A stretch of 64,000 bases of DNA, taken from contig CAWJRG010000010.1 in assembly GCA_963845185.1 (NCBI GenBank), positions 640,001-704,000 on the forward strand, written 5' to 3'. Shown in pieces: positions 4,808 through 23,015 of the stretch. The first letter of the stretch is position 1. Every line of letters starts with the position of its first letter. The DNA comes from an uncultured bacterium. GTDB taxonomy: Bacteria; Oederibacteriota; PGYV01; CAWJRG01. Both the position numbers and the translations under genes were made by a program. The notes under the pieces were generated by a model. It saw nothing but the letters and a program-made list of their open reading frames with translations, made no database searches and was not told the DNA's origin.

Positions 4808-7261
4808 TTATTGGATTGCTTTTGGCCCTATCCCCGCGTCCGCCATCTGCATGGTGTACTCCAGCATATGGTATGCTGCTGAGGCGTCGTCCGGTATCGT
4901 GACGATATTTATGGACATGGGCGAAAAAGTTATTTTCCTGGGCTTGAGTTTTTCGACCGCAAGCGTCAGGACCCTCTTCACTGTATCTTTGTTGACGACC
5001 AGTATTGCTGTGGCTGCCTTTTTTCCGTCGTAGCTCGCATATACAGACATGCCATCAGGCGCCTCAGACGGCTTGACTGATATGCCGCTGAAGTTTGTGT
5101 CCACCATTTGCTGGACGTAATATTCAGGCGTGAGTTTATATGTCACCGGATTTTTTGTTGGGTCAGTCAGCACAAACCCGAAGACAGTAAAGTTTGCGCT
5201 CTGTACAGGCTCGGCAAGTTCCCAGAACGAGAAGTTCCAGAGCCCTGCCTCGAGCGCGGCGCCCATCCTGTCCGCGTCCCAGATGGCCGCGTAGAATGTC
5301 CCGGGCCCTACCTTGCGTGTCTCCGGAGTGTATAAATTGGTATTAGCGTCGTAGCAGACGCTTGCCTCGGTGATGGCCAGCTGCGTGCCCGACTTTCCGT
5401 GTTTTGCTATTCGGTTTTTTACGCTCTGGACAAACTCCGGAAACCCGTCTATATCATTTAGCACGCCCGCTTCAGTGAGCTCCCGTGCGGAAAAACCATA
5501 ATGATGTATGCTCACTATGTCGATGTAGTCCTTGCACCCGTCGAGCATCGGGCTCAGCCAGTCATTGCCATCATTGTATTTGGCGCCGAGCTCCGGCCCT
5601 ACGAATTTAATATCCACGCCGCTGTGCGCCTTTTCATTGGCGTCCAGCATTGCCTTTGCGTAGGAATTGTAGATAGCGGCATATTCGGACACGGTCGTAA
5701 CAGGCAGGCCTGTTTTCCTTTGAAAGAATACATCATATATATCCACCTCGTCGCCTATGCTCCAGTACTTGACCCCGTACTTTTTGGTGCCGTTTATATA
5801 GGTGACAATGTCCGCCGCTCCCTGCGCCGAGGTCTTGCCGCCATCCTTGTTGTTTCCGTAAACAGGTACCATCATGATAGGCTCTGCGCCTGTTGCGCGG
5901 CAATATTCTATAAACTTATCCTCCTGGCTATTGTCGAAAAGCTCAGGACTGTTCGCGTCGTTTTGGTTGTCCGCGCCTACAATTACGTTAAGTTTCAGCG
6001 CCTTGACAGGCTCCTCTGATCCCTTTAACCCGACCAGGCCGTTTTTGTTCCAGTCTATCCAGTCAAAGTAGCAGCTGCCGAAAGCATAGGGTGATATTGG
6101 GACACCGTTGTCCCGGCTTATCTTTACCGTCTTTATCTGGGCGCCGGCTTTTGCTTTGTCAAAAAAAGCGCCTCCTGTGCCTGCCGCCTCAACCTGACCT
6201 ATTTCCAGGACAGAATCGCCTGTGATCCTTGGCATAAAAGTAATGCCCTTGGTCAACTTCAGGTCCATGCTGTGCCCCAATCGCGCGCCGGCCGGTGTGT
6301 AATATGGGTCCTTTTGGAATGATGAAAATGGGAGCGTGACTTCTGTCCAGTCCCCGGATGATACCTGGAACACTGTGCCATACTGCACGTTAAATGAGTC
6401 CTTCAAAGACATCTGCACGTTGCCTGCCGCGCTTGATTTTATTTTAAATTTGAAACAGGTATTTTTGGAAAGGTCGGAAACCGGGACATTGCGTCCAATG
6501 CCGCACCACCCGCCCTTGGCCAGGCTGTAGGTAAGCTTTACTGCCTTTTGTCCGTCGGGCCCTGTCTCAAGCACAGCGTCACACCTGGAGCCCATAGAGT
6601 CTGCGAAAGTCCCAAGCATCTGGAAAGGGCTGGTAAACCAGTCCTCGATTATCCTGCCGTTTGAAGTAGAAACTATTATTACAGGCGTGGGTGCCGCGCC
6701 CGCTGATGCTTTCCCGGCTGCCTCGATGGGCCCGATTTCCACGGTTGAGTCTCCGGTAATTTCCGGCTGCAAATTCATGCTTTTGGTCATGGTGAGGTCC
6801 ATGGCATGCCCGGGTATCGCGTCCGGCGGCGTGTAATAAGGGTCCTTGTTAAAGGATGAAAAAGGAACCGTGACTTCTGTCCAGTCCCCGGATGAAACCT
6901 GGAACATGGCGACATACTGCACGTTGTATGAGTCCTTGAGCGCTATTTGCACTTGCCCGTCCGCGTTTGACCTGGCTTTGAACTTGAGTGAATTGTCTTT
7001 GGAAAGGTCGGCCGCGACAGCGCGCCAGATCCCGCACCAGCCGCTCGCGGTTATTTTTGATGTCAGCTTGATGGCCTTGTTTCCGTCAGGCCCGGCTTCA
7101 GCCGTGAAACTGATCTTGGAACCCGTGGTATCCGCGAATGTCCCAATGTCCTGCCCCGGGTTCACCATGCTCCAGTCCTCGATGACCGCCGCAAAAACAG
7201 CTGAAGACAGGAACAACAAAACCGCCGCGAGACTTAAAAGTCTTTTCATTTTTCTTTTCAT
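4808..7261 (-). CDS. Secreted glycoside hydrolase: 2x CBM11/CIA30-like domains + clan GH-A-like (GH44/GH51/GH39-like) catalytic domain
   Basis: Signal peptide; two repeats of GWCGI...WTEVT.PFSSF.KDPYY; catalytic-like YWSIGDE, FVGPE, SIHHY, LAITE; GGAG RBS before ATG 7261. Confidence 0.75.
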   Translation of the reverse strand: MKRKMKRLLSLAAVLLFLSSAVFAAVIEDWSMVNPGQDIGTFADTTGSKISFTAEAGPDGNKAIKLTSKITASGWCGIWRAVAADLSKDNSLKFKARSNADGQVQIALKDSYNVQYVAMFQVSSGDWTEVTVPFSSFNKDPYYTPPDAIPGHAMDLTMTKSMNLQPEITGDSTVEIGPIEAAGKASAGAAPTPVIIVSTSNGRIIEDWFTSPFQMLGTFADSMGSRCDAVLETGPDGQKAVKLTYSLAKGGWCGIGRNVPVSDLSKNTCFKFKIKSSAAGNVQMSLKDSFNVQYGTVFQVSSGDWTEVTLPFSSFQKDPYYTPAGARLGHSMDLKLTKGITFMPRITGDSVLEIGQVEAAGTGGAFFDKAKAGAQIKTVKISRDNGVPISPYAFGSCYFDWIDWNKNGLVGLKGSEEPVKALKLNVIVGADNQNDANSPELFDNSQEDKFIEYCRATGAEPIMMVPVYGNNKDGGKTSAQGAADIVTYINGTKKYGVKYWSIGDEVDIYDVFFQRKTGLPVTTVSEYAAIYNSYAKAMLDANEKAHSGVDIKFVGPELGAKYNDGNDWLSPMLDGCKDYIDIVSIHHYGFSARELTEAGVLNDIDGFPEFVQSVKNRIAKHGKSGTQLAITEASVCYDANTNLYTPETRKVGPGTFYAAIWDADRMGAALEAGLWNFSFWELAEPVQSANFTVFGFVLTDPTKNPVTYKLTPEYYVQQMVDTNFSGISVKPSEAPDGMSVYASYDGKKAATAILVVNKDTVKRVLTLAVEKLKPRKITFSPMSINIVTIPDDASAAYHMLEYTMQMADAGIGPKAIQ

Positions 7262-7275
7262 TTTTGTCTCCATTT
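6705..7275. repeat. Copy 1 of duplicated RBS + signal peptide + CBM11-like module
   Basis: Highly similar to 9425..9995 (offset 2720 bp). Confidence 0.9.
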
Positions 7276-7279
7276 ATGT

Positions 7280-9981
7280 TTATTCCATTTCAATCGAAAT
7301 AACATTATAATATTTCAAATTGTCCACCTTCAGTTTCAAGACTCCGTTATTAAAATCATACTTAACGTCCTTTTTGCCGTTGAAATCAGGCGAAACAGCG
7401 TACACTTTTAACGGCTTTTTTTGCAGCTCTATAAGTACATTAAAATCCCTTTGTGGCAGGATTTTGCCCTTATAGTTGTGATTGACCAGGTGAAGGACAT
7501 AGCGGTTGTCCTTTTTTTGTTCCATAAGGTTGTATGAAATATTTTTCCGCGGTATCCTCACGTTTACCGGCGAATAATCGTTGCCGTGGTAAAAGCCGCT
7601 GTTGTCTTTATAATACTTCGCGTATTCCGCGAAAAAATCCAATACCCGGATTCTTCAGCCGTGGGCTCGCCGGGCATCACGGTCGCGAGATGAAAGGCGT
7701 AATAACAGCCCGCGGCGTATGCTTCAGCGGCGTATATCCGCCAGAAATCCATTTTTTGTCCGGCTGAAAGCGCGTAATAGCCGTCAATTACCCTGTTTGG
7801 AAAATCAAGAAAAAATACAAGCGGGACATCTCCCGATGCTTCTTTACTGCGTTTATACATTTTCTTGTATATGTCCATGACTGACACGCTTCCGTCAAGT
7901 TTTCCGTCTTTTATGGGCACATAATCAAGGCCGTTCCAGTCCATGGGGGCGTTATCCGGGTTCGGCATGTAAATGCCCAGGCTGTTAAAATCGACGCATG
8001 GCATAATGCCGTTGCAGGTTATCAGTATCTTTTTCCCGTATTTTTCCCTGCCGTACGCCCTTGCAGCGTCAAATATTTCTTTTAAATACTTCTTTATGTA
8101 GACGCCTGTAAAAGTGCCGTCATTATACAGCCTGTTTCCCATTTGCTTGCCCCATTCTTTCGCGAGCGGGTTTGACTCTTCCTGCACCGTATCCTTTCCC
8201 CATGTTTTGCCGGTCCAGCCGTTTTTTTGCAGGTATTTCCTGTAGTTGAAATTCCTGTCAAGGTCGTCTGCCGGGACGCCTTTTTTTATGATGTTGTCGT
8301 CCGTCATTTTAAAATTATTTTTCCAGTCCGCGTCTTTATAATTTGGATATTTGTCCATAAGGTACCTGTTGAAATCCGCTATTGAATAGTCATCGAACCC
8401 TTCGTTGCCCGACCAGTTTTTTGCGGGCCCGCCCAGATACCCTGAATTTGCCTCGTCAAGGTGTATGCCGTCTGCGCCGCCGTCTATGAGCATTTTGCAG
8501 GTTTCTATTAGGTATTGCCTGTATTTCGGGTTTGCGAGCGCGCCGCGGTTTCCCACGCCCAGGAAGTCGTCCCACGGCACGACCTCGTTGTTTGCGTCCC
8601 TGGAAGCCATATTTAAAAAATCCCCGTTTGATTTAAATTCATTTTTATCTATGACCGTCGTAATCCCGCCCATGGCCAGTATGCCGGAATAATGGTATTT
8701 TTTCATATTGCTGAAATCGTAATCTGTCTTAGCGGCTCCGTCCGCGCCCCATTTGCAGAAATTCCTGATATTTATATCCGGTTTTACCTTATAAATCAGC
8801 GGGTCATATTCCTTCGGCCTTAGCTGGTCAAACACAAAGACCGTACAATCGCCAATATCCTTGTTTAACTTTTTATCTTCCAGGTTTTCAGGAAAAATAA
8901 TTTCGGATTTGTCCCCGCCCAGGTCGGTTACTGCGACATTACTGAAAATTATTGTGCTCTTTGCCTGCCCGCCGAACATCAGCTGGAAGGATGCTTTGGG
9001 GTCGGTCTCCATGTGCATGGTAAAGGTATAGGAGTATTTCCCGCTTTTTCCGGATAATTTGAATGTCCTTTGCTTTGAATATGAGGTCCACGGTTCTTTG
9101 TCCAGGTGTATTTCAGAAACTATGCTTATCGGCGGGTCTGCCCTGGCCTCAAACTCAACCCTGTATATTCTTCCCTTTACAATATTTATGCCCGGATTTG
9201 AAATACCCGCTGACCATAAATATGGCCCCGGCTCAGTAATTTCCACCTGCCCCCGGCCGTTTGCCGCGGTAAATACGCCCTTGCCTGTCTGGTTTGTCCA
9301 GAAATACCAGTTATTATTTCCCTGGCTGAAGTCTCCATTTACAGGCTGTAAAACATCATTGCCCGGTATCCCGCTTTTTGAAGCAGAAGAAGCGCCGCTG
9401 ATGGGCGTTGGAGCCGCGTTTGCAGATGCTTTCCCGGCTGCCTCGATGGGCCCGATTTCCACGGTTGAGTCTCCGGTAATTTCCGGCTGCAAGTTCATGC
9501 TTTTGATCATTGTGAGGTCCATGGCATGCCCGGGTATCGCGTCCGGCGGCGTGTAATAAGAGTCCTTGTTAAATGATGAAAAAGGTACTGTGACTTCTGT
9601 CCAGTCCCCGGATGAAATCTGAAACACGGCAACATACTGCACGTTGTATGAGTCCTTGAGCGCTATTTGCACTTCCCCGGCAGTGTTTGACTTGACCTTG
9701 AATTTCAAGGAACCAAACTTCGAAAGGTCTAGCGCAACAGCGCGCCATATTCCGCACCAGCCGCTCTCGGATATTTTTGAGGTCAGCTTGATGGCCTTGT
9801 TGTTGTCAGGCCCGGCTTCAGCCGTGAAACTGATCTTGGAACCCGTGGTGTCCGCAAACGTTCCTATGTCCTGACCATGGTTCACCCTGCTCCAGTCCTC
9901 AATGACTGCCGCAAAAGCAGCCGAAGACAGGAATAACAAAACCGCTGCTAAACTTAAAAGTCCTTTCATTTTTCTTTTCAT
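7280..9981 (-). CDS. Secreted CBM11-like + CBM4/9-like + TIM-barrel glycoside hydrolase-like protein (~900 aa), frameshifted near 7645
   Basis: ORFs 7564..10140 and 7280..7642 join as EESG-VLDFFAEY if one base is added; NGDFS CBM4/9 start; DGGADGIHLDE; C-terminal VLHLVNHNY beta domain; GGAGG RBS before ATG 9981. Confidence 0.7.
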
Positions 9982-9995
9982 TTTTGCCTCCATTT
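9425..9995. repeat. Copy 2 of duplicated RBS + signal peptide + CBM11-like module
   Basis: Highly similar to 6705..7275. Confidence 0.9.
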
Positions 9996-10176
9996 TGTGG
10001 AACATCGCTAAAAACCGCCGGAGATTATCATAAGTTCCCTCCGGAAAGTTATAATACATCCCCTCAACATGGGGGATTTCTTTCTGGATTAACATCGTTA
10101 CCTTACCCTGTATAATGGAGTTAAATGAAAAAGGTTGCAAATGATAGTTAAAAAAATTTGAATTGTAAGGGGTTTA

Positions 10177-10353: not shown

Positions 10354-10453
10354 AATTACCATACAATGTGCAATACTATACAATTTGTATGGTAATTATT
10401 TCTTGACAACAGTTACCATACAATATATGCTAATTCAAATAATGTATGATAAC
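10354..10453 (+). promoter_or_regulatory. Sigma70 promoter with two tandem inverted-repeat operators
   Basis: TTGACA 10403-10408, 17 bp spacer, TATGCT; TTACCATACA-N20-TGTATG(G/A)TAA at 10356-10395 and 10413-10452. Confidence 0.75.
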
Positions 10454-10465
10454 GAGGTGAGTACA

Positions 10466-10783
10466 ATGGCAGTAATTAAAGCTATATTAAGGGAAGAACT
10501 TCGTAATGCTGTTGTTATGAAGTCAGAATATGAAAAAGCCTTATCCAACCTTCCTGAAGGGGCGCTTTTTAAAAAGATGATTAAAAACAGGGAATACTGG
10601 TACCTGATTTCAAGGAAAGATAAAAAGGTCCATTTTAAATATATGGGGAAGCTGGATAAAGACAAAATTAATGAATATAACGAATCAAAGAAACTAAGAG
10701 CAAAATACCGTAGCTTGCTGTCCCAGGTAAAAATTCGTATCAAGTATCTTAAAGGAGTTTTACGTGGAAAAAGAGAAATATGA
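10466..10783 (+). CDS. Small basic protein, putative antitoxin/DNA-binding partner
   Basis: GAGGTG RBS; LPEGAL..K.IK.REYWYL......V.FKYMG; overlaps downstream nucleotidyltransferase. Confidence 0.7.
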   Translation: MAVIKAILREELRNAVVMKSEYEKALSNLPEGALFKKMIKNREYWYLISRKDKKVHFKYMGKLDKDKINEYNESKKLRAKYRSLLSQVKIRIKYLKGVLRGKREI

Positions 10784-11453
10784 GTTGTTTACCGAAGTAT
10801 TAAAAAGGTTCGACAAGTCCGGCGTTTTAAGTGATCTTATAATAGCCGGCAGCTGGAACATCTTTCTTTACAGAGACTTTTTTGGCAAAGATTTCGAAAA
10901 AATACCACAGTTAAGAACGACAGATGTGGATTTTTTGGTTCCAAATCCTTCAAAAATAATCCATAAATCCAATATACCGGAAATTATGAAGGACCTTGGA
11001 TTTATAGTTAAATTTAAAGGAAACGAAGGTTTCGTCAAACTTATTCATCCCGACCTCACAATTGAGTTTATTGTGCCGGAAAAGGGCAAAGGAGTTGATA
11101 ATAAACCTGTTTCTTTGCCTGGGTTAGGCATAAATGCCCCTGCATTAAGGTTTATGGATATCCTTTATGAAAATATAATAACAGTAGTGTACGATGGCAT
11201 AAAAGTTAATATTGCCCATCCTGCGGCATTAGCTTTTCATTATTTGATGATTTATCCAAGACGTAAAAACAAAGAAAAGGCTGAAAAGAATCTTGAACAT
11301 GCGGCTTCTATACTTAAATTAATGATTGAAAAAGACAAACAAAAAGAAACCCGTGATATTTTTAACAAACTGCATAAAAACTGGAAAAAAGAAATAATTG
11401 AATTAATGAAAAAAAAAGACCTTGCTAATATTGTGGCGGACTTAAAGCTTTAA
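10764..11453 (+). CDS. Nucleotidyltransferase-fold protein (GSU2403/AbiEii-like), putative toxin
   Basis: IIAGSW and RTTDVDFL Pol-beta-type motifs, C-terminal R...KAEK.L helix. Confidence 0.75.
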   Translation: MEKEKYELFTEVLKRFDKSGVLSDLIIAGSWNIFLYRDFFGKDFEKIPQLRTTDVDFLVPNPSKIIHKSNIPEIMKDLGFIVKFKGNEGFVKLIHPDLTIEFIVPEKGKGVDNKPVSLPGLGINAPALRFMDILYENIITVVYDGIKVNIAHPAALAFHYLMIYPRRKNKEKAEKNLEHAASILKLMIEKDKQKETRDIFNKLHKNWKKEIIELMKKKDLANIVADLKL

Positions 11454-11707: not shown

Positions 11708-11764
11708 CCAATGTACCTTCCGGTAATATGGCCCTAAACCCGAACTAAAATGAGTGATTTAGGG
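11708..11764. repeat. REP-like composite palindrome, copy 1
   Basis: TTCCGGTA..ATGGCCCTAAACCCGAAC...TTTAGGG shared with 18234..18304 and partly with 12811..12848. Confidence 0.65.
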
Positions 11765-12604: not shown

Positions 12605-13234
12605 ATTTGTCCTCCTAAATGGAATTTTAGGGTGCTTTATATACTACTAAACAGAAAAATTGTCAATAAAAAACCCCTCTGGTAAAAAAAGTTGAGCGGG
12701 ATAGATTCGGACTTCTAACATAAAATGATAGTGCAGTTACATATGTTTCAGTCTTTTTTCTACTTTATGTTTCAAGATCAAGGGAAAAACGAGGTTTATT
12801 GCGGATGGGGCCCATGTATTAGTCATTTCATTCCGGAGCCCTAAATCCTGTACCACTCATTTCGTCTGGGTGCAGGACTTGCCCGAGTTATAGTGAGTTT
12901 TAACCTTGAACTTGAGCTACAACGAATAGGTGAGAGGAGAATGTTTTAGAGTTTAATTTATAATCTAAATGTTCTAATAATACTTTCAATAATTTGTTTT
13001 ATGATTGATATTTCCATCCTCTTATCTTTGAATAAGCTTTAAATACTGGATCCGAGAATCTATAGCATTTATTACGAATTTTTATTAATATTGGGGATTT
13101 TGGATCTGCCGTTAATTCCTTCATTAGCTGCGAAGGATTTGTGATTCCCATTTCTTTTACGGTAGCATAAATACTTTCTGTATCCATTTCATCATCAGTA
13201 GTATGGAATGAACCCCTTCGTTTGGACACTCGGA

Positions 13235-14044
13235 TTAGAACAAACCGGCCTGTTCCTGTAGTTTAGTTTCAAATTCTACCGGTGGAACGTAGCCTATTGC
13301 CGAATGCAATCTTTTTTGATTATACACCTCCTCTATAAAAAATGGAATCCTTTTCAAGACGTCATCGATAGTTTTATAATCCCACATATAAACTTCTTCA
13401 CATTTAATTGTTTTCATAAAACTCTCGGCTCCGGCGTTGTCGTACGGGTTGCCTTTGCGCGACATGCTGATAGTAAATTCGTGTTCCTTCAAGATGCCAA
13501 CGTAATCGTTGCAGGCATACTGCACGCCGCGGTCTGAATGATGGACTACGCCTGTTCCGGGCTTACGTCTCTCTATGGCCATTTTAAGCGCTCCTATAGC
13601 AAGGTCGGCATCAAGATACAGCGAAATATTGTAGCCTATGACCTTTCTTGAAAAAGCGTCCAGTATCACCGCTAAATACACGAAGCCAAGCAAAATTCTG
13701 ATGTATGTTATGTCTGAACGCCAGAGCTGGTTTAACGTTGTCAGGATCATGTCCTTCGCTATATTCGGGTAAATCCTGAACGGGTGATTGGAGTCTGTGG
13801 TTTTTACCCACTTGCGTTTGTACACCACCAAAAGCGAGCTTTCACGCATGATTCTTTGTACTCTTTTGTGGTTTACAATCACACCTTCACGGTGAAGCTG
13901 TTTTGTAACCCGCCTATATCCATATCCTGCAAACTCAAGAACTATCCGTTCAATTTTATCTCTTAAATCACAGTCCACCTTTAATTTTTTCTGGTTTTTT
14001 TCTTTGGGTTTGTAGTAATAACTGCTTCGGCTCAACCCAGTCAT
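13235..14044 (-). CDS. IS3-family transposase OrfB (DDE)
   Basis: YGYRR, W.SDITY, HHSDRGVQY, DNA.AESF..TIK.E, YN.KRLHSAIGY motifs. Confidence 0.95.
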   Translation of the reverse strand: MTGLSRSSYYYKPKEKNQKKLKVDCDLRDKIERIVLEFAGYGYRRVTKQLHREGVIVNHKRVQRIMRESSLLVVYKRKWVKTTDSNHPFRIYPNIAKDMILTTLNQLWRSDITYIRILLGFVYLAVILDAFSRKVIGYNISLYLDADLAIGALKMAIERRKPGTGVVHHSDRGVQYACNDYVGILKEHEFTISMSRKGNPYDNAGAESFMKTIKCEEVYMWDYKTIDDVLKRIPFFIEEVYNQKRLHSAIGYVPPVEFETKLQEQAGLF

Positions 14045-14400
14045 TTTGCACCATCTTTTAACTTCTCCTTGCCTTCTTCGCCCGGATATGGCCCGCCGAA
14101 TAAACTCTCTCTTTTCTTTGGTGCTTTTGCAAGGTGTTGACAGGCTTTTTTTAAAAAGTCATTGTCCATAGTCATCTGCCCAAGCTTGCGTTCAAGCTCC
14201 CGGACATGTTCTTTAAGCCCCTCGACTTCATCAGGTTCATTGCCGTATTTGCCACGGGCATAATTTTGCTTCCAATTCTGGAGTAATCCCCCTGATATTC
14301 CATATTTCCGGCTTATCTGCGCCGGCGTACTTACCTTGGATAGCAATTCTTCTACTACTTGTATCCTAAATTCTTTGTCAAAAACTCTCTTTGGTTTCAT
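14041..14400 (-). CDS. IS3-family transposase OrfA (HTH); A7G slippery site at 14152..14145
   Basis: HTH_Tnp_1-like N-terminus; the -1 frame from FLKK is open into OrfB (KKSLSTPCK...WCKMTGLSRSSYY). Confidence 0.9.
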   Translation of the reverse strand: MKPKRVFDKEFRIQVVEELLSKVSTPAQISRKYGISGGLLQNWKQNYARGKYGNEPDEVEGLKEHVRELERKLGQMTMDNDFLKKACQHLAKAPKKRESLFGGPYPGEEGKEKLKDGAK

Positions 14401-15566
14401 AGATGGTCTCCTTTGCCTTATCAGGCCAGGTCTCCGTCTATTCTAACACATGTGTCCAGTCTCTTGGGTGCAGCCCAGTATCTGAAAATGCTTTTAATAA
14501 TATTTCTCGTTGTGGTGAATTTTTAACAGCAGCGTGATAAATATCTTCGTATATAGTCTTTAGTTTACCTTCTGAAATTTCTTTGACTAAAATATCAATT
14601 GTTGATTTATTAATTGTTCCTTGCCCTCTTTCATATGCCAATAACATGGCTTCTCTTCCTAATAAATGAACGAAATAAGGAAAACCTTCACTTTTATTAA
14701 TAATTATTTTTTTAACATCTTCATCAAATAAAATTTTTTTAGAAATATGATGCTCGGCTTTCGTTATAATTTCCATTAATTCTGTTTCTGGCATTCTTTC
14801 AATTTCGATAGATTCAATTTGTCTACCAACAGAAGAATGATCTTCAATCAACTCAGTTATTGATGATGCGATACCAATTATTCCAAATTTTACAAATTCT
14901 GACGAACAAGCTTTTACTAACGATGAAAAACCTTTTTTATCTTTTAAAGTGTCAAATTCATCAATTAAAATAAAAATTCCTGTTTTATCTTGGTTATCCT
15001 TTTGAACCGTACCTAACATTTGTCTAAATTGTTGTGTTAAATCATCCGACATATATGTTTTAAATGTTTTTTCCTCTTTTCCCGAACCATTTATTTTTGC
15101 TCCAAAAAAATTAGCGCCTCCATCTATTCCTATTGTTTTTTTAAAACTTTCTAATTTTATATCACCAGATTTTGTTAAATTAAATAAAGGAGGATTCTTA
15201 TCATCGCCAAATAAAATTCTTTTCAATAAATCAAAAACGTTTTTAATTGAACTATCTATTTTAATGTAATATGTAATAAACTTGAATCCATTATTAGGGA
15301 TAAAACGATCTAAACTTAATGTTCTTGGCAATTTATTATTTCCAGAAGCAATTAGGGATAGTTGGTGTCCTATTGAAGATTTTCCAACACCTCTTAAGCC
15401 ATATATAGCAAGAAAAGATCCGGGATTGCTTAGACAAATTATACCATTACGTATTTGTTCCTTTCTTCCTACAAATAAATCAGGATTTTGTATTTCTTGA
15501 GTAGGCGAAAAAGCTTCGTTAATTATTTTAATATCCATAGTTCTCCTTTTTAAAAATTTTTAATAT

Positions 15567-17969
15567 TTAATCATTTATTAATTTAAAAATATAAGAATAA
15601 ATATTATTCAACGGTCCTGAAATTTTATTATTATCAAGAAAAGAACTTACAATATTCATATAATTTACGTTAATTTTATATAGAATATTTTCATCTTTAG
15701 TTGATATAGTTTTTTGATCTAACGTAATTATTTGCAATTTAATAAATTCTTCAAAAATTTTTTCAATTTTAGGAATATTTTTTATACAACCAATAATTAT
15801 ATTTATTTTTTTTACTGAATGATAAACCTTTCCCGTTCTAAATTTTCCAAGTATTTGATTAATCCATTTTTTAACGTCATCTTCATAAACAGGTACTTCA
15901 TTCTCAGCTAATATTTTCATTAAACATGCTTTAGAATCTTCATCAATTTTTTCTACTTTTGAAAAATTTTTTTTAAATGATAATCTTTTAAGTCCTTTAC
16001 AGTTTTTAAATTCAATTCTTCCAGTAAATTCTCCATTTTCGAATAATGTATTTTCATTGAAATCACATTTATCAAATACTACGTCTTTAAAATTACAATT
16101 TATAAAAGTAACATTGAATAAATTAATTTTGGTTATTGTTCCTTTGATAGACATATTTTCAAATTTTCCATCAAACACAAATAATATATCTTCTATAATA
16201 TCCTCCGATTTTCTTTCAGTGCTTTTAAAATTTGTTGATAGATATTGGATTAAATTAAAGAGTGCGGGTGAATAATAATTTCGCCAATCTTTATGTCCTC
16301 TTAATTTATCTGATAAAATTTTTATTCTATTTATTAGAGCTTTATATTCTAAATTATTAATTTTATTTAATCTAAAAATTTCATTTAAATTCCCAAAATA
16401 TTCAGTTAACCCCGAATGTAATTTTTCAGAGAATTTTTTTAAATACTCATATTCAGATATTTCTTCTTGAAACAAAATATCGTAAAAAACCAAACACTCG
16501 AAAAATGGTCCTGCAAAATTCCACCTAAATTCATAATTATTTTGTTTATTTTTTTTAATAAGAGGATGGCTAATAAATGAACGGAATCTATTTTTGTCTT
16601 TTGGATTTTCTTTATCAATATTTGAATAAATCCATATAAAATCTTCGGAAAATGAATTTCCAATATATTCTCTATCTTTAACAATATTTTTAAATATTTC
16701 CATTTGTGTAGTAGAATCTAACCCTATTCCTTGTTTTAATGAATTACGATCACAAACTTTTTTTAATACCGCATACATAATTCCTAAGTTAGAAACACTT
16801 AATTCTGCATTATTAGTATCTTCTGCTGCTAAACAAATCATTTCTAGCATATAAGGATTAATTTCAATCTTACTTTTATTATCATAAGCATCTATAACGC
16901 TTCTAGCAAGTTTTTCGGCACGCTTACGTTGTATTTCATTTGTCAAATCAGGTGAAGATTGAATAAAATCAATCATTTGTTTTTCATTAAAATCTTTTAA
17001 AGCAAATATATCTATATTTTTCTCTATTAATTGCATAACTTCACTACTTTTAACATCTTTTATTGCTTCATCCCAAAAAACATCTCTTGTTGTAAGTAAT
17101 ATTCGACCAGTATCAATTGTCTTATTAAGACCGCTGACAAGAGAAGTAATTTTCTCTAAAACATCTTGTGCATTAAAAGAATGATAAAACATTGTACATA
17201 ACTCATCAAATCCGTCGAAAATTATTAAAAAACTACCATTATTCAAAAAAGTTTCTAAAAATTCTGTAGATTGTCTTTTAAATTTTAATTGAACCAATGA
17301 TTCAGATAGAATATCTTCAATCGCAATGGGGGACTTATCTAATAAATTTTTCCATTGGGAAGAATCAATAAAGATTGGAAGAATTTGTCTATTTTCGAAA
17401 TTTATTGCATAATTAAAATTAATTTTTTCACATAATCTAGTTTTTCCACCACCCCCAGCTCCCAATATTACTGCCACATTTCTTTTACCATTGATCAACC
17501 ATTCATTAATAAAATAATTTAATGCATTATCTTTTGATTCTTCATGCGAATCATGGCGAAAATAAATAAGAGCTTGGGATGTATATTTAGGCTCGTTTAA
17601 GTTTTCAAACAAAGATTTATCAATATTCCTTTTTATTATATCAAACGAAAATTGTCTAACAGTCCTAATTGTTGTAGCACTAAGACTTTTTTTAATACTT
17701 TCCAATTTCATTTGAATTTTGCTTGAATTTTTACCACTAATTAATGGTGAAGAATTTTGGATTAAAATATTTAATTTTCTTTCATGAGAATTTTTTTCTA
17801 AGGCATCATCAAGTGACGTATTATTAGCATCAGAATCAAAAAAAATAAATTTTATTTTTTTAATTTCAGCATAATCATAATATTCACATTCATATAATTC
17901 CCATTGCTTTCCTTGATTAATAATAGCAACATTTTCATATGCTTGTCTTAATTCGTTTATTATTGACAT
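15567..17969 (-). CDS. NACHT-type STAND NTPase with C-terminal pentapeptide-like repeats
   Basis: ILGAGGGGKT, LIIFDGFDEL, ILLTTR, NPYML; FINCNFKDVVFDKCDF; very AT-rich DNA. Confidence 0.85.
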   Translation of the reverse strand: MSIINELRQAYENVAIINQGKQWELYECEYYDYAEIKKIKFIFFDSDANNTSLDDALEKNSHERKLNILIQNSSPLISGKNSSKIQMKLESIKKSLSATTIRTVRQFSFDIIKRNIDKSLFENLNEPKYTSQALIYFRHDSHEESKDNALNYFINEWLINGKRNVAVILGAGGGGKTRLCEKINFNYAINFENRQILPIFIDSSQWKNLLDKSPIAIEDILSESLVQLKFKRQSTEFLETFLNNGSFLIIFDGFDELCTMFYHSFNAQDVLEKITSLVSGLNKTIDTGRILLTTRDVFWDEAIKDVKSSEVMQLIEKNIDIFALKDFNEKQMIDFIQSSPDLTNEIQRKRAEKLARSVIDAYDNKSKIEINPYMLEMICLAAEDTNNAELSVSNLGIMYAVLKKVCDRNSLKQGIGLDSTTQMEIFKNIVKDREYIGNSFSEDFIWIYSNIDKENPKDKNRFRSFISHPLIKKNKQNNYEFRWNFAGPFFECLVFYDILFQEEISEYEYLKKFSEKLHSGLTEYFGNLNEIFRLNKINNLEYKALINRIKILSDKLRGHKDWRNYYSPALFNLIQYLSTNFKSTERKSEDIIEDILFVFDGKFENMSIKGTITKINLFNVTFINCNFKDVVFDKCDFNENTLFENGEFTGRIEFKNCKGLKRLSFKKNFSKVEKIDEDSKACLMKILAENEVPVYEDDVKKWINQILGKFRTGKVYHSVKKINIIIGCIKNIPKIEKIFEEFIKLQIITLDQKTISTKDENILYKINVNYMNIVSSFLDNNKISGPLNNIYSYIFKLIND

Positions 17970-18233: not shown

Positions 18234-18304
18234 CCCATGTACCAGTCTTTTCATTCCGGTACATGGCCCTAAACCCGAACCATAAGTGAATGGTTTAGGG
18301 CTAC
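18234..18304. repeat. REP-like double hairpin, most complete copy
   Basis: CCATGTACC...GGTACATGG and CCCTAAACC...GGTTTAGGG-CTAC (reads GTAG + palindrome on minus strand). Confidence 0.7.
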
Positions 18305-19668: not shown

Positions 19669-21147
19669 TTATTTCAGTACAATAAATTTATCAACCCTGC
19701 TAAAATTTGTTGTCTTTCCTTTTTGCTTGTATGCTATAAAATATATGCCGCTTGCAAGGTTTTGCACGTTGATTTCAACGGTATTTACCCCTGCGTTCAA
19801 ATTCTGGCTAATTTTTCCTATCAACCTGTATGCCGCTGTATAAATGGTTAATTCTATATTGGCGTCTTCTGTGATGTTAAATACATATTTAAGCTTGTCT
19901 TTTGCAGGGTTTGGATATATCAGCGACTTGCCAGGCGCAACTGCCAGGGGAGGAGGGGTCGGAGCCGGGCATAGCGGTTGCGCCGTCCCTGTCAGCCATG
20001 CCAGAACATCCGCGCCGTGGCACGAGGTGGGCGTATAGCTCCAATCCTTTATGAGTGTGGGCCCTGAATACGGGTTCAGGTCCCATGCAGTCGCGTTGTA
20101 CATGTAATTCGCGTTATTGCCGCCGTCAAGCCATGAAATAAAGCTGGACTCATACGGGTTGCACCCGCTGTCGTCCCAGCCGCAGCAGTTGCCTTCGTTG
20201 TTTGTGCCGCCCATTAAAGACCCGAATTCCCCTACTATGACGCAGTAACCGGCGTTCACTGCCACCCCTACATACTGGTCCCAGCTTGCCGCGTCATTGT
20301 TCCCCGGGTTGCCGTAATATATATGCGCGTCATAAGCTATGCCGTAACCTGTCAGGGTGTTGCCGGTGTTCCTGTCCGTTATCGGATTCGACGGTACTCC
20401 GGTCAGGTCATGCGCCCAGACCAGGCCGTCCACAATGGCTATATTCTTCGCACCTGTATCGCGGATAGTCTCTACCATAGTCTGGTATCCCGGGCTGACA
20501 AAACTGCCGGTCCAGCCGCCGTTCTGCCATGTGGTCAACGGCATATAAGTCGGCTCATTATAAAGGCCGAAAAGCACAGCAGGGTTATTGCCGAATGTCA
20601 CGGCAAGGCTCTGCCAGAACACCAGGGCATTCATGTCACACATGGCCGGCCCGGTTGCCTGCACAGAAGTGGAAGTACCCCATGTGCCAAGGCCTGACCA
20701 GTGCAAATCCAGGATCACATAGCAGTTGAGTGCCGACGCAGTGTTTACCATATCGGCAACAAGGGTTCTGTAATTGCTCTGGTTTGTCAAATCCTGCGTG
20801 GTAGAGGAAGATGTTACGCCGTTACTGTAGCCAAACCAAAAATCCTGGTTTAAGGGTATCCTTACGATATTGGCTTTCCATGTGTTCACTGCCACGGTTA
20901 TTGACTGTGTCATATCCCCGCCTGGCCCGCTTGCCAGGCCTTTGCCGTCCGCTTCCCATTCCAGCCCGTCCACGTTTACGCCCACGAGCCTTACAGGGCA
21001 GCCGGTCGCCGCGTTTACAAAGTATTTTCCCGACACCGCAAGCTGCGGAGGCGCCGCAATAAGGACTGTATTTATAAGGAATATGCATGATAATGCTGTG
21101 AAGGTTATAAATATAATCTTTGGTACTAGATTAATGCTCTTATACAT
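19669..21147 (-). CDS. GH5 endoglucanase-like enzyme with T9SS-like C-terminal sorting domain
   Basis: NIVRIPL, ILDLHW, FGLYNEP, AHIY, VGEFG; C-terminal IYPNPA...LASGIYFI...KFIVLK. Confidence 0.9.
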   Translation of the reverse strand: MYKSINLVPKIIFITFTALSCIFLINTVLIAAPPQLAVSGKYFVNAATGCPVRLVGVNVDGLEWEADGKGLASGPGGDMTQSITVAVNTWKANIVRIPLNQDFWFGYSNGVTSSSTTQDLTNQSNYRTLVADMVNTASALNCYVILDLHWSGLGTWGTSTSVQATGPAMCDMNALVFWQSLAVTFGNNPAVLFGLYNEPTYMPLTTWQNGGWTGSFVSPGYQTMVETIRDTGAKNIAIVDGLVWAHDLTGVPSNPITDRNTGNTLTGYGIAYDAHIYYGNPGNNDAASWDQYVGVAVNAGYCVIVGEFGSLMGGTNNEGNCCGWDDSGCNPYESSFISWLDGGNNANYMYNATAWDLNPYSGPTLIKDWSYTPTSCHGADVLAWLTGTAQPLCPAPTPPPLAVAPGKSLIYPNPAKDKLKYVFNITEDANIELTIYTAAYRLIGKISQNLNAGVNTVEINVQNLASGIYFIAYKQKGKTTNFSRVDKFIVLK

Positions 21148-21389: not shown

Positions 21390-23015
21390 TCAGTCTATTA
21401 CAATATCAAGTGATTCTTCTTTAGTCTTCCCGCGCTTGGGCCCGTGGGTGTGCGGCTGTCGCACAACATTTGCCGGAAGCATCAGGGCCAGCGGCACCGC
21501 TATCATGACCACCAGCGCGGCTATAAAAAATGTGTCCTGAAAAGCCTTTATCACGCCTGATTTGACAATGGCGCCCATCAGCATGCCTCTTGAGGCCAGC
21601 ATTGACGTGCCGAAACCGTAGCCCAGCTCGTGGACATGCGCCATGATATTTTCCAGCGACTGCCTGAAAGCAGGGTTTGATGCCTTTATGTTTTGCCCGG
21701 CCATCGCTATATGGAACACCGACCTGTTTGAAAGGATTGCGGTGAAAAAGGCTATGCCTATGGACGCTCCCACCTGCTGTATTATGCTGTTCATCGAGGA
21801 CGCAATGCCTATTTTTCTTTGCGGCACGGAATTCATGAATGCCAGCATGACCGGCGCCATAAGCAGGCCCATGCCTATGCTTCTTAACATCATCGGGTAT
21901 ATCATTCCCCATATGCCCGTATTCACGTCAAGCTTGTCGTAAACAAGCAGGCTGTAAGCCACTATCAAAACTCCTATTGTGCACGGTATTCTCGGCCCTA
22001 TCCTGTCGGACATAATGCCGACCAGGGGCAGTACGATCCCCATAAAAAGCGCTGACGGCAGCATCAACATCCCGCTCTGGAGCGCTGTGTACCCCATCTG
22101 CTGCTGCACAAAAACAGGTATTAAAAAAATCGAGCCGAAAAGCCCGGCGGACCGCGCCACTGTTATTGCCGTGGCGCTGGCGAATACCGGGATTTTAAAA
22201 AGGCTCAGGTCTATTATGGGGTAATCAATGTATGAATCCACAAGCATAAAGCCTATGAAGCCGATTGCAGCCAGGCTGAAGCAGGTAATTATGAAAGCGG
22301 ATGACCATCCCTCCCTCTGGCCTTTTGAAAGGCCGAGCAGCGCAAAAACGAGAAACACCGATAAAAAGCCGAACCCCCAGAAATCAAACGGTTTTTTGAC
22401 CAGCTTGTGCGGTGCGTCCTTGAGGAGCAGTTCCATGGCAGCCACAATGCCTATTATGCCGAGCGGCAGGTTGACGAAAAAAATCGAGCGCCACCCGAAA
22501 TAGTCAGTAAGGAACCCGCCGAGCGTGGGACCGAACGCAGGCCCGATTATTATCGCCACGCCGAATACGCCCATGGAGCTCCCTCTCTCTTCCGGCGGGA
22601 AAACTTCAGCTGCCATTGCCATGGATGTGGGCTGCATTGCCCCGCCGCCAAAAGCCTGTATTACGCGCGCGAATATCAGCATGGGCAGGTTCCATGCAAG
22701 CCCGCACAGGACCGAGCCGAGCGTAAAAAGGAAAAGCGCGCCTATATAAATGTTCCTGTACCCTATCCTATCCCGCAGCCATCCTGTCATGGGCATTAGC
22801 GTAGCAAAGGCCAGCATGTAGCCCGTCGATACCCATTCTATATCATCAAGGTTCACGCCGAAATCAGCCATTATTTTCGGGATGGACACGTTGACGATGG
22901 ACTGGTCTATTGCCGCCATAATCATGCCAAGCATGACAATACCCATAACCACCCATTTATATCCTTCCGGAAATTTCTGCTGCTTAATTTGCTGTAAGTG
23001 CGGTTCCTGCGCCAT
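21390..23015 (-). CDS. DHA2 (EmrB/QacA) MFS efflux transporter
   Basis: D.SIVNVSIP, W....YMLA, GPAFGPTLGG, WRSIFFVNLP. Confidence 0.9.
   Translation of the reverse strand: MAQEPHLQQIKQQKFPEGYKWVVMGIVMLGMIMAAIDQSIVNVSIPKIMADFGVNLDDIEWVSTGYMLAFATLMPMTGWLRDRIGYRNIYIGALFLFTLGSVLCGLAWNLPMLIFARVIQAFGGGAMQPTSMAMAAEVFPPEERGSSMGVFGVAIIIGPAFGPTLGGFLTDYFGWRSIFFVNLPLGIIGIVAAMELLLKDAPHKLVKKPFDFWGFGFLSVFLVFALLGLSKGQREGWSSAFIITCFSLAAIGFIGFMLVDSYIDYPIIDLSLFKIPVFASATAITVARSAGLFGSIFLIPVFVQQQMGYTALQSGMLMLPSALFMGIVLPLVGIMSDRIGPRIPCTIGVLIVAYSLLVYDKLDVNTGIWGMIYPMMLRSIGMGLLMAPVMLAFMNSVPQRKIGIASSMNSIIQQVGASIGIAFFTAILSNRSVFHIAMAGQNIKASNPAFRQSLENIMAHVHELGYGFGTSMLASRGMLMGAIVKSGVIKAFQDTFFIAALVVMIAVPLALMLPANVVRQPHTHGPKRGKTKEESLDIVID

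Follow-up and report, generated by a model that had tools for sequence, protein, structure and literature searches.

The window analyzed here is a stretch of 64,000 nucleotides from the genome of an uncultured bacterium of the phylum Oederibacteriota (GenBank assembly GCA_963845185.1, contig CAWJRG010000010.1, positions 640,001 to 704,000). On its minus strand, between positions 12999 and 17969, lie two adjacent genes for P-loop nucleoside triphosphatases (NTPases), one encoding a NACHT protein and the other an AAA+ ATPase, which a preliminary description had regarded as a candidate two-gene defense system. An 800-aa open reading frame (ORF, 15567..17969) is followed after a gap of 28 bp by a 366-aa ORF (14438..15538). 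The latter is followed on its 3′ side by a pair of overlapping ORFs (14041..14400 and 13235..14044), behind which a 76-aa ORF (12999..13229) is located. These ORFs represent an intact NACHT gene and an ATPase gene split by an insertion sequence (IS) of the IS3 family, with the following features (REase, restriction endonuclease; wHTH, winged helix-turn-helix):

15567..17969, minus strand: intact NACHT (bacterial NLR-related) gene, 800 aa (ORF; Pfam NACHT; full-length alignment with relatives of ~770-800 aa)

17604..17969, minus strand: predicted N-terminal domain, residues 1-122, REase-like fold (AlphaFold model m3851a3ea7094)

16986..17477, minus strand: NACHT NTPase core, residues 165-328 (Pfam envelope; Walker A G175-K176; Walker B D252-G-F-D-E256)

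15891..16196, minus strand: predicted short pentapeptide-repeat β-helix, residues 592-693 (model m7dd3799c8819)

15570..15890, minus strand: predicted C-terminal winged helix, residues ~694-783, and terminal helix (VIA-align, model residues 109-198)

15539..15566, minus strand: 28-bp spacer with AGGAG at 15543-15547 (sequence reading)

14478..15538, minus strand: 5′ part of the ATPase gene, residues 1-354, nSTAND1/Orc-Cdc6-like AAA+ core (alignment A1 with homologs of 420-428 aa)

13204..14477, minus strand: IS3-family element, 1274 bp, TG...CA ends (extent common to four copies in the genome)

14041..14400, minus strand: orfA of the IS3 element (Pfam HTH_Tnp_1, rve and HTH_21 across orfA/orfB)

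13235..14044, minus strand: orfB of the IS3 element (the same three Pfam matches across orfA/orfB)

14478-14480 (left) and 13201-13203 (right), minus strand: TAC target-site duplication (sequence reading at the IS ends)

12999..13203, minus strand: 3′ part of the ATPase gene, last 66 residues with the putative wHTH, and stop codon (aligns to the C-terminal 66-68 residues of homologs)

The presence of an 800-aa NACHT protein encoded 28 bp upstream of the ATPase, as given in the preliminary description, was confirmed by the ORFs and by a match of residues 165-328 to the Pfam family NACHT (PF05729) with 36.5 bits against a cut-off of 26.7. The protein has a Walker A motif of the type GK[ST] (G175-K176-T) and a Walker B motif of the type D[GAS]hDE (D252-G253-F254-D255-E256), and G175, K176, D252, G253, D255 and E256 were invariant in an alignment of 22 family sequences. 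In NLRs, the NTPase core is extended by a winged helix with a conserved histidine. In the 22 sequences H468, located ~210 residues past Walker B, was nearly invariant and is a candidate for this histidine, the putative winged helix being expected within residues 329-585.

The N-terminal ~160 aa, described earlier as unrecognized, indeed had no match in Pfam. Both termini (residues 1-165 and 586-800) were modeled from fragment-to-fragment alignments of locus DNA comprising 21 sequences each (A6 and A7); an alignment of the N-terminal fragment with full-length homologs (A4) misplaced the tail of the fragment. The N-terminal model showed a predicted local distance difference test score (pLDDT) of > 90 over residues 1-115 and the order helix, three strands, helix, strand, helix, strand, helix, with a core topology of α-β-β-β-α-β (helix 4-10, strands 12-19, 23-32, and 35-44, helix 50-59, strand 67-70). 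The best Foldseek match was EcoT38I (E 1.2e-3), and VIA-align gave EcoT38I (Z 6.3), AF1548 (6.0), FokI (5.8), and Cdn1 (5.6), all with Z < 8; nucleases were frequent among the top matches and also included N.BspD6I, SduA, and Can2. Within residues 1-130, neither an invariant or near-invariant D, E, or K nor the catalytic pattern D...(D/E)xK was found in alignments A3 (22 sequences), A4 (46 sequences), and A6, and the only conserved positions near the N-terminus were G10, W23, S74, and P132. According to the model, this domain has a putative REase-like fold, but it is probably not a canonical nuclease. The earlier statement that no effector is evident is consequently upheld with respect to catalytic residues, none of which is conserved, but not with respect to the predicted fold, which is similar to that of nucleases.

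At the other end of the protein, the pentapeptide models of Pfam stayed under their cut-offs (Pentapeptide_4 19.0 versus 38, Pentapeptide_3 17.5 versus 27), although the model of residues 586-800 (pLDDT 86.8) recovered the pentapeptide-like repeats noticed before as a β-helix. For this part (model residues 7-108), VIA-align returned MfpA (Z 7.8, root mean square deviation 2.6 over 80 residues), alr1298 (7.6), and the SV2 luminal domain (7.5), and Foldseek gave weak matches to Rfr, AlbG, MfpA, and Qnr, all with E > 1e-3. As in the DNA mimics MfpA, Qnr, and AlbG, the predicted helix is a right-handed quadrilateral one (AhQnr and EfsQnr Z 6.0-6.5); unlike in these proteins, it has a length of ~100 residues, is part of a STAND protein, and does not reach the Pfam cut-offs, the likeness being confined to the predicted fold. 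The segment behind it matched winged helices, namely MarR-family 2fsw (Z 6.9), WRN RQC (6.9), and STIV F93 (6.8). The structure prediction of the termini that had been proposed in the preliminary description, which gave Z values of 6-8, points to a layout in which the NACHT NTPase stands behind an REase-like fold and ahead of a short pentapeptide β-helix, with a winged helix at the C-terminus.

According to the text of a preprint by Kibby et al. (10.1101/2022.07.19.500537), D[GAS]hDE is the diagnostic form of Walker B in NACHT proteins, several bNACHT genes protect against phage, protection by bNACHT01 requires the Walker A lysine, mutations of the histidine are hyperactivating, and the fusions found in bNACHT proteins include REase and pentapeptide (Pp) domains, bNACHT25 having an Mrr-like REase effector. 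The window protein is like these proteins in its Walker A GK, its D[GAS]hDE motif, and its order of N-terminal domain, NTPase, and C-terminal repeats, and its family occurs likewise mostly as a solo gene near other defense genes. It is unlike bNACHT25 in that its REase-like domain has no conserved catalytic residue, and unlike the bNACHT proteins as described in the preprint text in its C-terminus, for which a winged helix behind a very short pentapeptide helix is predicted. By its sequence, the protein fits a divergent new member of the bacterial NLR-related class.

An exhaustive phmmer search identified 400 representatives of the NACHT family at E ≤ 1e-3, 208 at E ≤ 1e-10, and 15 at E ≤ 1e-30. 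The relatives are mostly 760-800 aa long and align from about residue 10 to about residue 795 with 20-31% identity, and judged by these alignments the family keeps one fixed end-to-end architecture. Among 99 species genomes of the host's phylum, a single one, that of the host itself, contained a member (E ≤ 1e-10), which points to a foreign origin of the gene; the host genome has one copy each of the NACHT gene and the ATPase gene. In viral contigs no family member was detected, the only match being a weak and partial one to NACHT. A metagenome scan with the NACHT alignment yielded 62 loci, 35 of which hold true family members (> 400 bits with the family profile). Several of these are near-duplicates, the downstream DNA extends over 1.3 kb or more in 18 of the 35, and the relatives they contain are 20-27% identical to the window protein; the closest relatives (P0125-P0127, 28-31%) were not placed on DNA. 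Neighboring genes in the 35 loci formed clusters only from near-identical contigs and in a few pairs, no neighbor was conserved, and the NACHT gene stood alone outside any conserved operon. The Pfam content of 42 neighbors was mixed and comprised subunits of type I restriction-modification (R-M) systems, an integrase, resolvases, and transposases besides a lysyl/aspartyl-type tRNA synthetase and solute-binding proteins; except for type I R-M helicase subunits, no P-loop ATPase was found among them. Type I R-M operons enclose or adjoin some of the relatives (L045, L047/L048). In the metagenome contigs L047 (1672-3981) and L048, the NACHT-family gene lies between hsdR and hsdM/hsdS of a type I R-M locus.

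STAND regulators of the MalT/AfsR type couple the sensing of a ligand to an NTPase switch and to the control of transcription. The NACHT protein might work in the same manner, its repeat region sensing a ligand, its NTPase acting as the switch, and its C-terminal winged helix binding DNA. This would agree with the MarR/PadR-like winged helix modeled at the C-terminus (Z 6-6.9), with the lack of conserved catalytic residues in the N-terminal domain, and with the absence of a PADLOC match. We nevertheless regard such a regulator as quite improbable, since the family is patchily distributed (1 of 99 genomes of the phylum), the gene is extremely foreign in composition, relatives occur within type I R-M loci or lie beside an integrase, resolvases, and transposases, and no target operon is conserved in the neighborhood. 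In addition, the bacterial NACHT proteins tested according to the text of the preprint are antiphage proteins (10.1101/2022.07.19.500537).

Together, the 366-aa and the 76-aa ORF make up a single ATPase gene in two halves, which are colinear with homologs of 420-428 aa. They match profile positions 3-359 and 359-426 and contain no internal stops, and the C-terminal 66 residues, encoded by 12999..13199, are cut off by the IS. When the IS is removed along with one of the two TAC copies, an uninterrupted frame results (...AFSDT/TDDEMD...) that gives 354 + 66 = 420 aa, which agrees with the size of ~420 aa proposed before. The inserted element is an ordinary member of the IS3 family with two overlapping ORFs, TG...CA ends, and a 3-bp duplication. 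It matched the NCBIfam model transpos_IS3 (NF033516) with 284.4 bits at a cut-off of 160, and all of the features by which the family is recognized (transposase, TG...CA ends, duplication of 3-4 bp) were present. The host genome (3.50 Mb, 11 contigs) contains four copies with 100% identity, located at C8:1550-2824, C9:626424-627697, C5:467684-468957, and 13204-14477 of the window, so the element transposed recently in this genome. Taken together with the 3-bp duplication and the lack of stops in the ATPase pieces, this makes the insertion into the ATPase gene look recent as well. As the IS severs the wHTH from the remainder of the protein, the ATPase is probably inactivated in this genome.

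The ATPase fragment of the window gave only sub-threshold matches in Pfam, with nSTAND1 (PF20703) at 23.1 bits versus a cut-off of 27.1 and ATPase_2, AAA, AAA_22, and AAA_16 also under their cut-offs; many of its full-length homologs carry precomputed matches to PF20703 (nSTAND1), PF13191 (AAA_16), or PF01637 (ATPase_2). The putative Walker A and Walker B motifs, GLRGVGKSS and LILIDEFD, were conserved in alignments A1 and A2. The closest full-length relative, P0007, shares 65% identity with window residues 1-354. Its ESM Atlas model has a predicted TM score of 0.80 and has clusters labeled nSTAND1 as structural neighbors (TM 0.72-0.92). A search of the ATPase profile against PDB chain sequences returned nothing below E 0.1. 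We infer the C-terminal wHTH from the family pattern and the Atlas model. The assignment of the second P-loop gene to an AAA/wHTH ATPase in the preliminary description is thus supported by the family homologs and the Atlas neighbors, and judged by its sequence the protein appears to be an nSTAND1/Orc-Cdc6-like AAA+ ATPase with a wHTH and with neither an effector domain nor a repeat sensor. Its P-loop region resembles the nSTAND1 clade. Kaur et al. (2021, PMC8195603) describe nSTAND1 as a central module that is accompanied by effector-associated domains and by sensor repeats in multidomain proteins; unlike the proteins described there, the family found here is a minimal one of 420 aa with an NTPase and a wHTH and no effector-associated or sensor domains.

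This family comprises 220 proteins at E ≤ 1e-3; for the 120 best of them, identity to the query is 50-67% and extends over 96-97% of its length. With few exceptions the members have 420-430 aa, and their sources include Cyanobacteria, Brevibacillus, Chitinophaga, Flavobacteriales, Marinifilaceae, Gammaproteobacteria, Parcubacteria, and a Hodarchaeales archaeon. A single longer relative was found, the metagenomic protein P0274 of 810 aa (31% identity over 96% of the query), although according to the warning of the tool a small number of fused forms is weak evidence. P0274 contains a metallophosphoesterase domain (PF00149), a possible hint at an effector partner. We analyzed 22 genome loci of the ATPase gene with up to 7 kb of flanking DNA on each side. 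In all 22 the gene was the sole conserved unit, with different genes upstream and downstream throughout, encoding e.g., carbamoyl-phosphate synthase, an aminotransferase, an epimerase, a P-type ATPase, major facilitator superfamily transporters, sigma factors, and R-M or other defense proteins. The adjoining 600 bp on each side showed no similarity among the loci at the DNA or peptide level except for one weak downstream pair, and no convincing terminal repeats were found around the solo gene in four other genomes. L016, L004, L001, L005, and the other 18 loci alike show a lone ATPase gene of 1.3 kb in unrelated neighborhoods with neither flanking repeats nor conserved flanks. The GC content of the gene was lower than that of its immediate neighbors in 14 of the 22 loci; in L016 (6953-8602) a gene with a GC content of 0.42 is surrounded by genes with 0.64-0.65. 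Clear PADLOC matches within three genes of the ATPase gene occurred in 5 of the 22 loci and included a type I REase, an AriA/GajA-like ATPase, PDC-M03A/B, HEC-04, and a DpdF-like protein together with a type II R-M system.

Distant relatives of the ATPase (23-33% identity) were found in 13 plasmid records and in three phage records, including temperate actinophages, and 14 further ones in viral contigs. On plasmid pXG-13k of Acinetobacter indicus (L087), a relative with 24-25% identity directly follows a type II R-M pair. In Mycobacterium phage Kevin1 (L086), gene 30 encodes a relative with 24-25% identity beside a HicB-like antitoxin, with the lysis genes on one side and the integrase and repressor genes on the other. 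Both positions are classic ones for accessory genes. In related phages, the region between lysis and integrase genes contains prophage-expressed defense genes.

Two other roles of the ATPase were considered in view of these data. It might serve a mobile element as an Orc/Cdc6- or IstB-like ATPase for DNA loading or maintenance, in which case the adjacent NACHT gene would mark no more than a hotspot for foreign DNA. The conservation of 50-67% across distant phyla would be unusual for an immune sensor, the combination of AAA+ and wHTH domains goes without sensor repeats or an effector, distant relatives are present on plasmids and phages, and 15 of the 22 loci have no defense gene recognized by PADLOC within three genes. 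On the other hand, neither flanks nor terminal repeats nor partner genes are conserved in the 22 loci, so that no element can be delimited around the gene; the neighbors are often housekeeping genes with no mobility genes among them, five loci lie beside known or candidate defense genes, and the single longer relative P0274 is fused to an effector-like metallophosphoesterase. A function for a mobile element therefore has a small chance in our view. We also regard it as unlikely that the ATPase represents an uncatalogued, autonomous 'minimal STAND' gene directed against mobile elements or acting in immunity, in which an nSTAND1-like AAA+ module and a wHTH, with neither sensor repeats nor an effector, would act directly on nucleic acid, e.g., by Orc-like loading on invader DNA. 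Such a gene would be spreading singly between phyla and into archaea at a retained identity of 50-67%, and its place right behind the gene of an effector-less NACHT protein might mean that the two cooperate in this lineage.

The preliminary description had proposed that the two genes form one defense system and that co-occurrence of their homologs should be checked. The outcome of this check was negative. With the NACHT-family profile no match was obtained in the 22 ATPase loci (ORFs ≥ 60 aa, E ≤ 0.01, up to 7 kb of flank), and a NACHT domain was present in none of 21 upstream neighbors of the ATPase gene. Conversely, the ATPase profile had no match in the 62 NACHT-query loci (ORFs ≥ 60 aa, E ≤ 1e-3), 35 of which contain family members, 18 of these with 1.3 kb or more of DNA downstream. 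Recurrent pairing in unrelated genomes, by which a dedicated two-NTPase system is recognized, was not observed. The lack of co-occurrence was what the preliminary description itself had named as speaking against its proposal, and on this ground the two-gene reading fails. Kaur et al. (2021, PMC8195603) predicted nSTAND2 pairs, systems of two genes that each code for a STAND NTPase. The two genes of the window are like these pairs in being adjacent NTPase genes in the context of conflict systems. They are unlike the nSTAND2 pairs, which are defined by recurrent pairing, in that their pairing does not recur and that the clades involved are NACHT and nSTAND1-like.

The statement that the DNA of the two genes is far more AT-rich than its flanks was borne out by the GC contents. 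The NACHT gene has a GC content of 0.240 and a GC content at third codon positions (GC3) of 0.131, and the 5′ part of the ATPase gene has values of 0.278 and 0.136. For the flanking genes the GC contents are 0.473 (7564..10140), 0.506 (19669..21147), and 0.518 (21390..23015), corresponding to 0.24-0.28 versus 0.47-0.52, and for the whole window 0.436. From this composition it is plausible that both genes belong to a foreign, horizontally acquired low-GC islet with a defense-island-like origin.

We therefore favor the explanation, with a probability of about 0.68, that the NACHT gene and the ATPase gene are two unrelated and separately mobile single-gene NTPase modules, which came to lie side by side by chance in a horizontally acquired low-GC islet and do not form a dedicated pair.

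Several observations weigh against this explanation. The two genes share the strand, a gap of 28 bp, and a ribosome-binding site in the spacer (AGGAG, five bases ahead of the ATG of the ATPase gene), no terminator-like site was detected on the minus strand between 12600 and 18600 by a terminator scan, and their composition is nearly equal. Co-transcription of the two genes is therefore probable, and both may have been acquired with the same piece of DNA. A promoter scan was uninformative (34 sites versus 32 ± 6 expected). The same features, including the near-identical GC and GC3 values, agree with a lineage-restricted two-gene system, in which the NACHT protein would sense and the ATPase/wHTH protein would act as partner or regulator, and which would have been transferred as one operon and later disabled by the IS. 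The lack of a demonstrably active effector domain in the NACHT protein and the earlier prediction of paired STAND NTPase genes (nSTAND2, PMC8195603) agree with it as well. Against such a system stand the absence of the NACHT family from all 22 ATPase loci and of the ATPase from all 62 NACHT-query loci and the fact that both families remain full-length, with the same architecture, as solo genes. Moreover, the ATPase is 50-67% identical across phyla versus 20-31% in the NACHT family, a gap that is not expected of a co-evolving pair. We accordingly hold a two-gene system of this kind to be improbable. The counts for the NACHT family have their own limits, as its loci contain only relatives with 20-27% identity, the downstream DNA is long enough in only 18 of 35, and near-duplicates are among them. 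With the closest NACHT relatives (P0125-P0127) lying outside the sampled loci, a pairing restricted to their lineage is conceivable, though we consider this far from likely.

The defense role assumed for both modules likewise meets with contrary evidence. The window NACHT protein had no match to a PADLOC 2.0.0 family at E ≤ 0.1, the window ATPase matched only mad8 (0.0032) and mad3 (0.022), and in the wider families the lowest E-values were 8.8e-5 (22 NACHT members) and 5.6e-5 (16 ATPase members), such matches occurring in a minority of the members. The earlier finding that no named system can be assigned thus still holds, as there is no convincing match in PADLOC 2.0.0. In 15 of the 22 ATPase loci no PADLOC match was present within three genes (E ≤ 1e-10), and two more loci were ambiguous. 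A literature search returned, in the material it covered, nothing relevant on a characterized single-gene defense protein of the AAA_16/wHTH type. The fold matches of the termini of the NACHT protein are of middling quality (Z 6-8), and the tool warns that such Z values can reflect common arrangements. Since neither protein matches a validated defense family of PADLOC and 15 of the 22 loci have no PADLOC match nearby, the case for defense is built on analogy and context. The genomic context of both genes is suggestive of defense, and both may have such a role.

If the NACHT protein acts in this way, then by analogy with characterized STAND and bNACHT proteins its C-terminal pentapeptide β-helix and winged helix would sense a cue derived from an invader, the NACHT module would next mediate nucleotide-dependent oligomerization, and the N-terminal REase-fold domains brought together in the oligomer would serve as output. 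This output might be that of a nuclease with a non-canonical site, but a non-catalytic module that binds DNA, serves as an adaptor, or recruits a host factor would be no less likely, and probably more so. Since the N-terminal domain has no conserved catalytic residues, the output is the weakest step of the proposed mechanism. For the ATPase in its intact form, the AAA+ core and the wHTH suggest a nucleotide-dependent assembly on nucleic acid; elsewhere the protein seems to travel as a solo gene, and in this genome the wHTH would be lost to the IS.

Should the two genes indeed be independent modules, they would be ordinary defense-island cargo and not a new type of system. Two families are worth keeping in this case: the NACHT family of ~780 aa, in which a seemingly dead N-terminal domain of REase fold is combined with a short pentapeptide helix and, at the C-terminus, a winged helix, and the strongly conserved and very widely transferred AAA+/wHTH gene of 420 aa, which was always found alone and has no match in PADLOC 2.0.0.

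With respect to the borders of the islet, empty-site and synteny comparisons were made with 24 genomes of the host's order. The GH5 (glycoside hydrolase family 5) gene on the right flank has homologs in 7 of the 24 genomes, and the gene on the left flank has no homolog in them outside the host, so that the borders cannot be set by comparison. Direct repeats of 23-26 bp around the gene pair (12811-12836/18234-18259 and 11728-11750/18263-18285) were considered as attachment (att) sites and rejected: they are part of a palindromic repeat that matches other sites of the genome too, and because they recur elsewhere they give no evidence of a discrete integrated element. The repeat is short and dispersed, contains a palindrome (CCCTAAACC...GGTTTAGGG), and is present on both sides of the NACHT-ATPase pair. 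Copies are located at 11718-11764, 12811-12836, and 18234-18300 of the window and at C9:623492-623555, C10:122951-122992, and other sites of the host genome. It may mark hotspots of recombination or insertion and not a specific att pair.

The islet is flanked on one side by a GH5 cellulase gene with a sorting tail for the type IX secretion system (19669-21147). This gene has an 85%-identical paralog at C9:880973-882460 of the host genome and several further paralogs with 55-59% identity. On the other side, genes rich in carbohydrate-binding modules (4808-10140) are located, which are also present in multiple copies. Between the latter and the NTPase genes, ~1.5 kb away from the pair, a 132-aa ORF on the plus strand overlaps the start of a 229-aa nucleotidyltransferase gene (PF12281, NTP_transf_8, E 3.6e-20), the two together spanning 10385-11453. 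These two genes have a GC content of 0.32-0.33 and gave no PADLOC match; they resemble a small two-gene module, possibly of the toxin-antitoxin-like kind.

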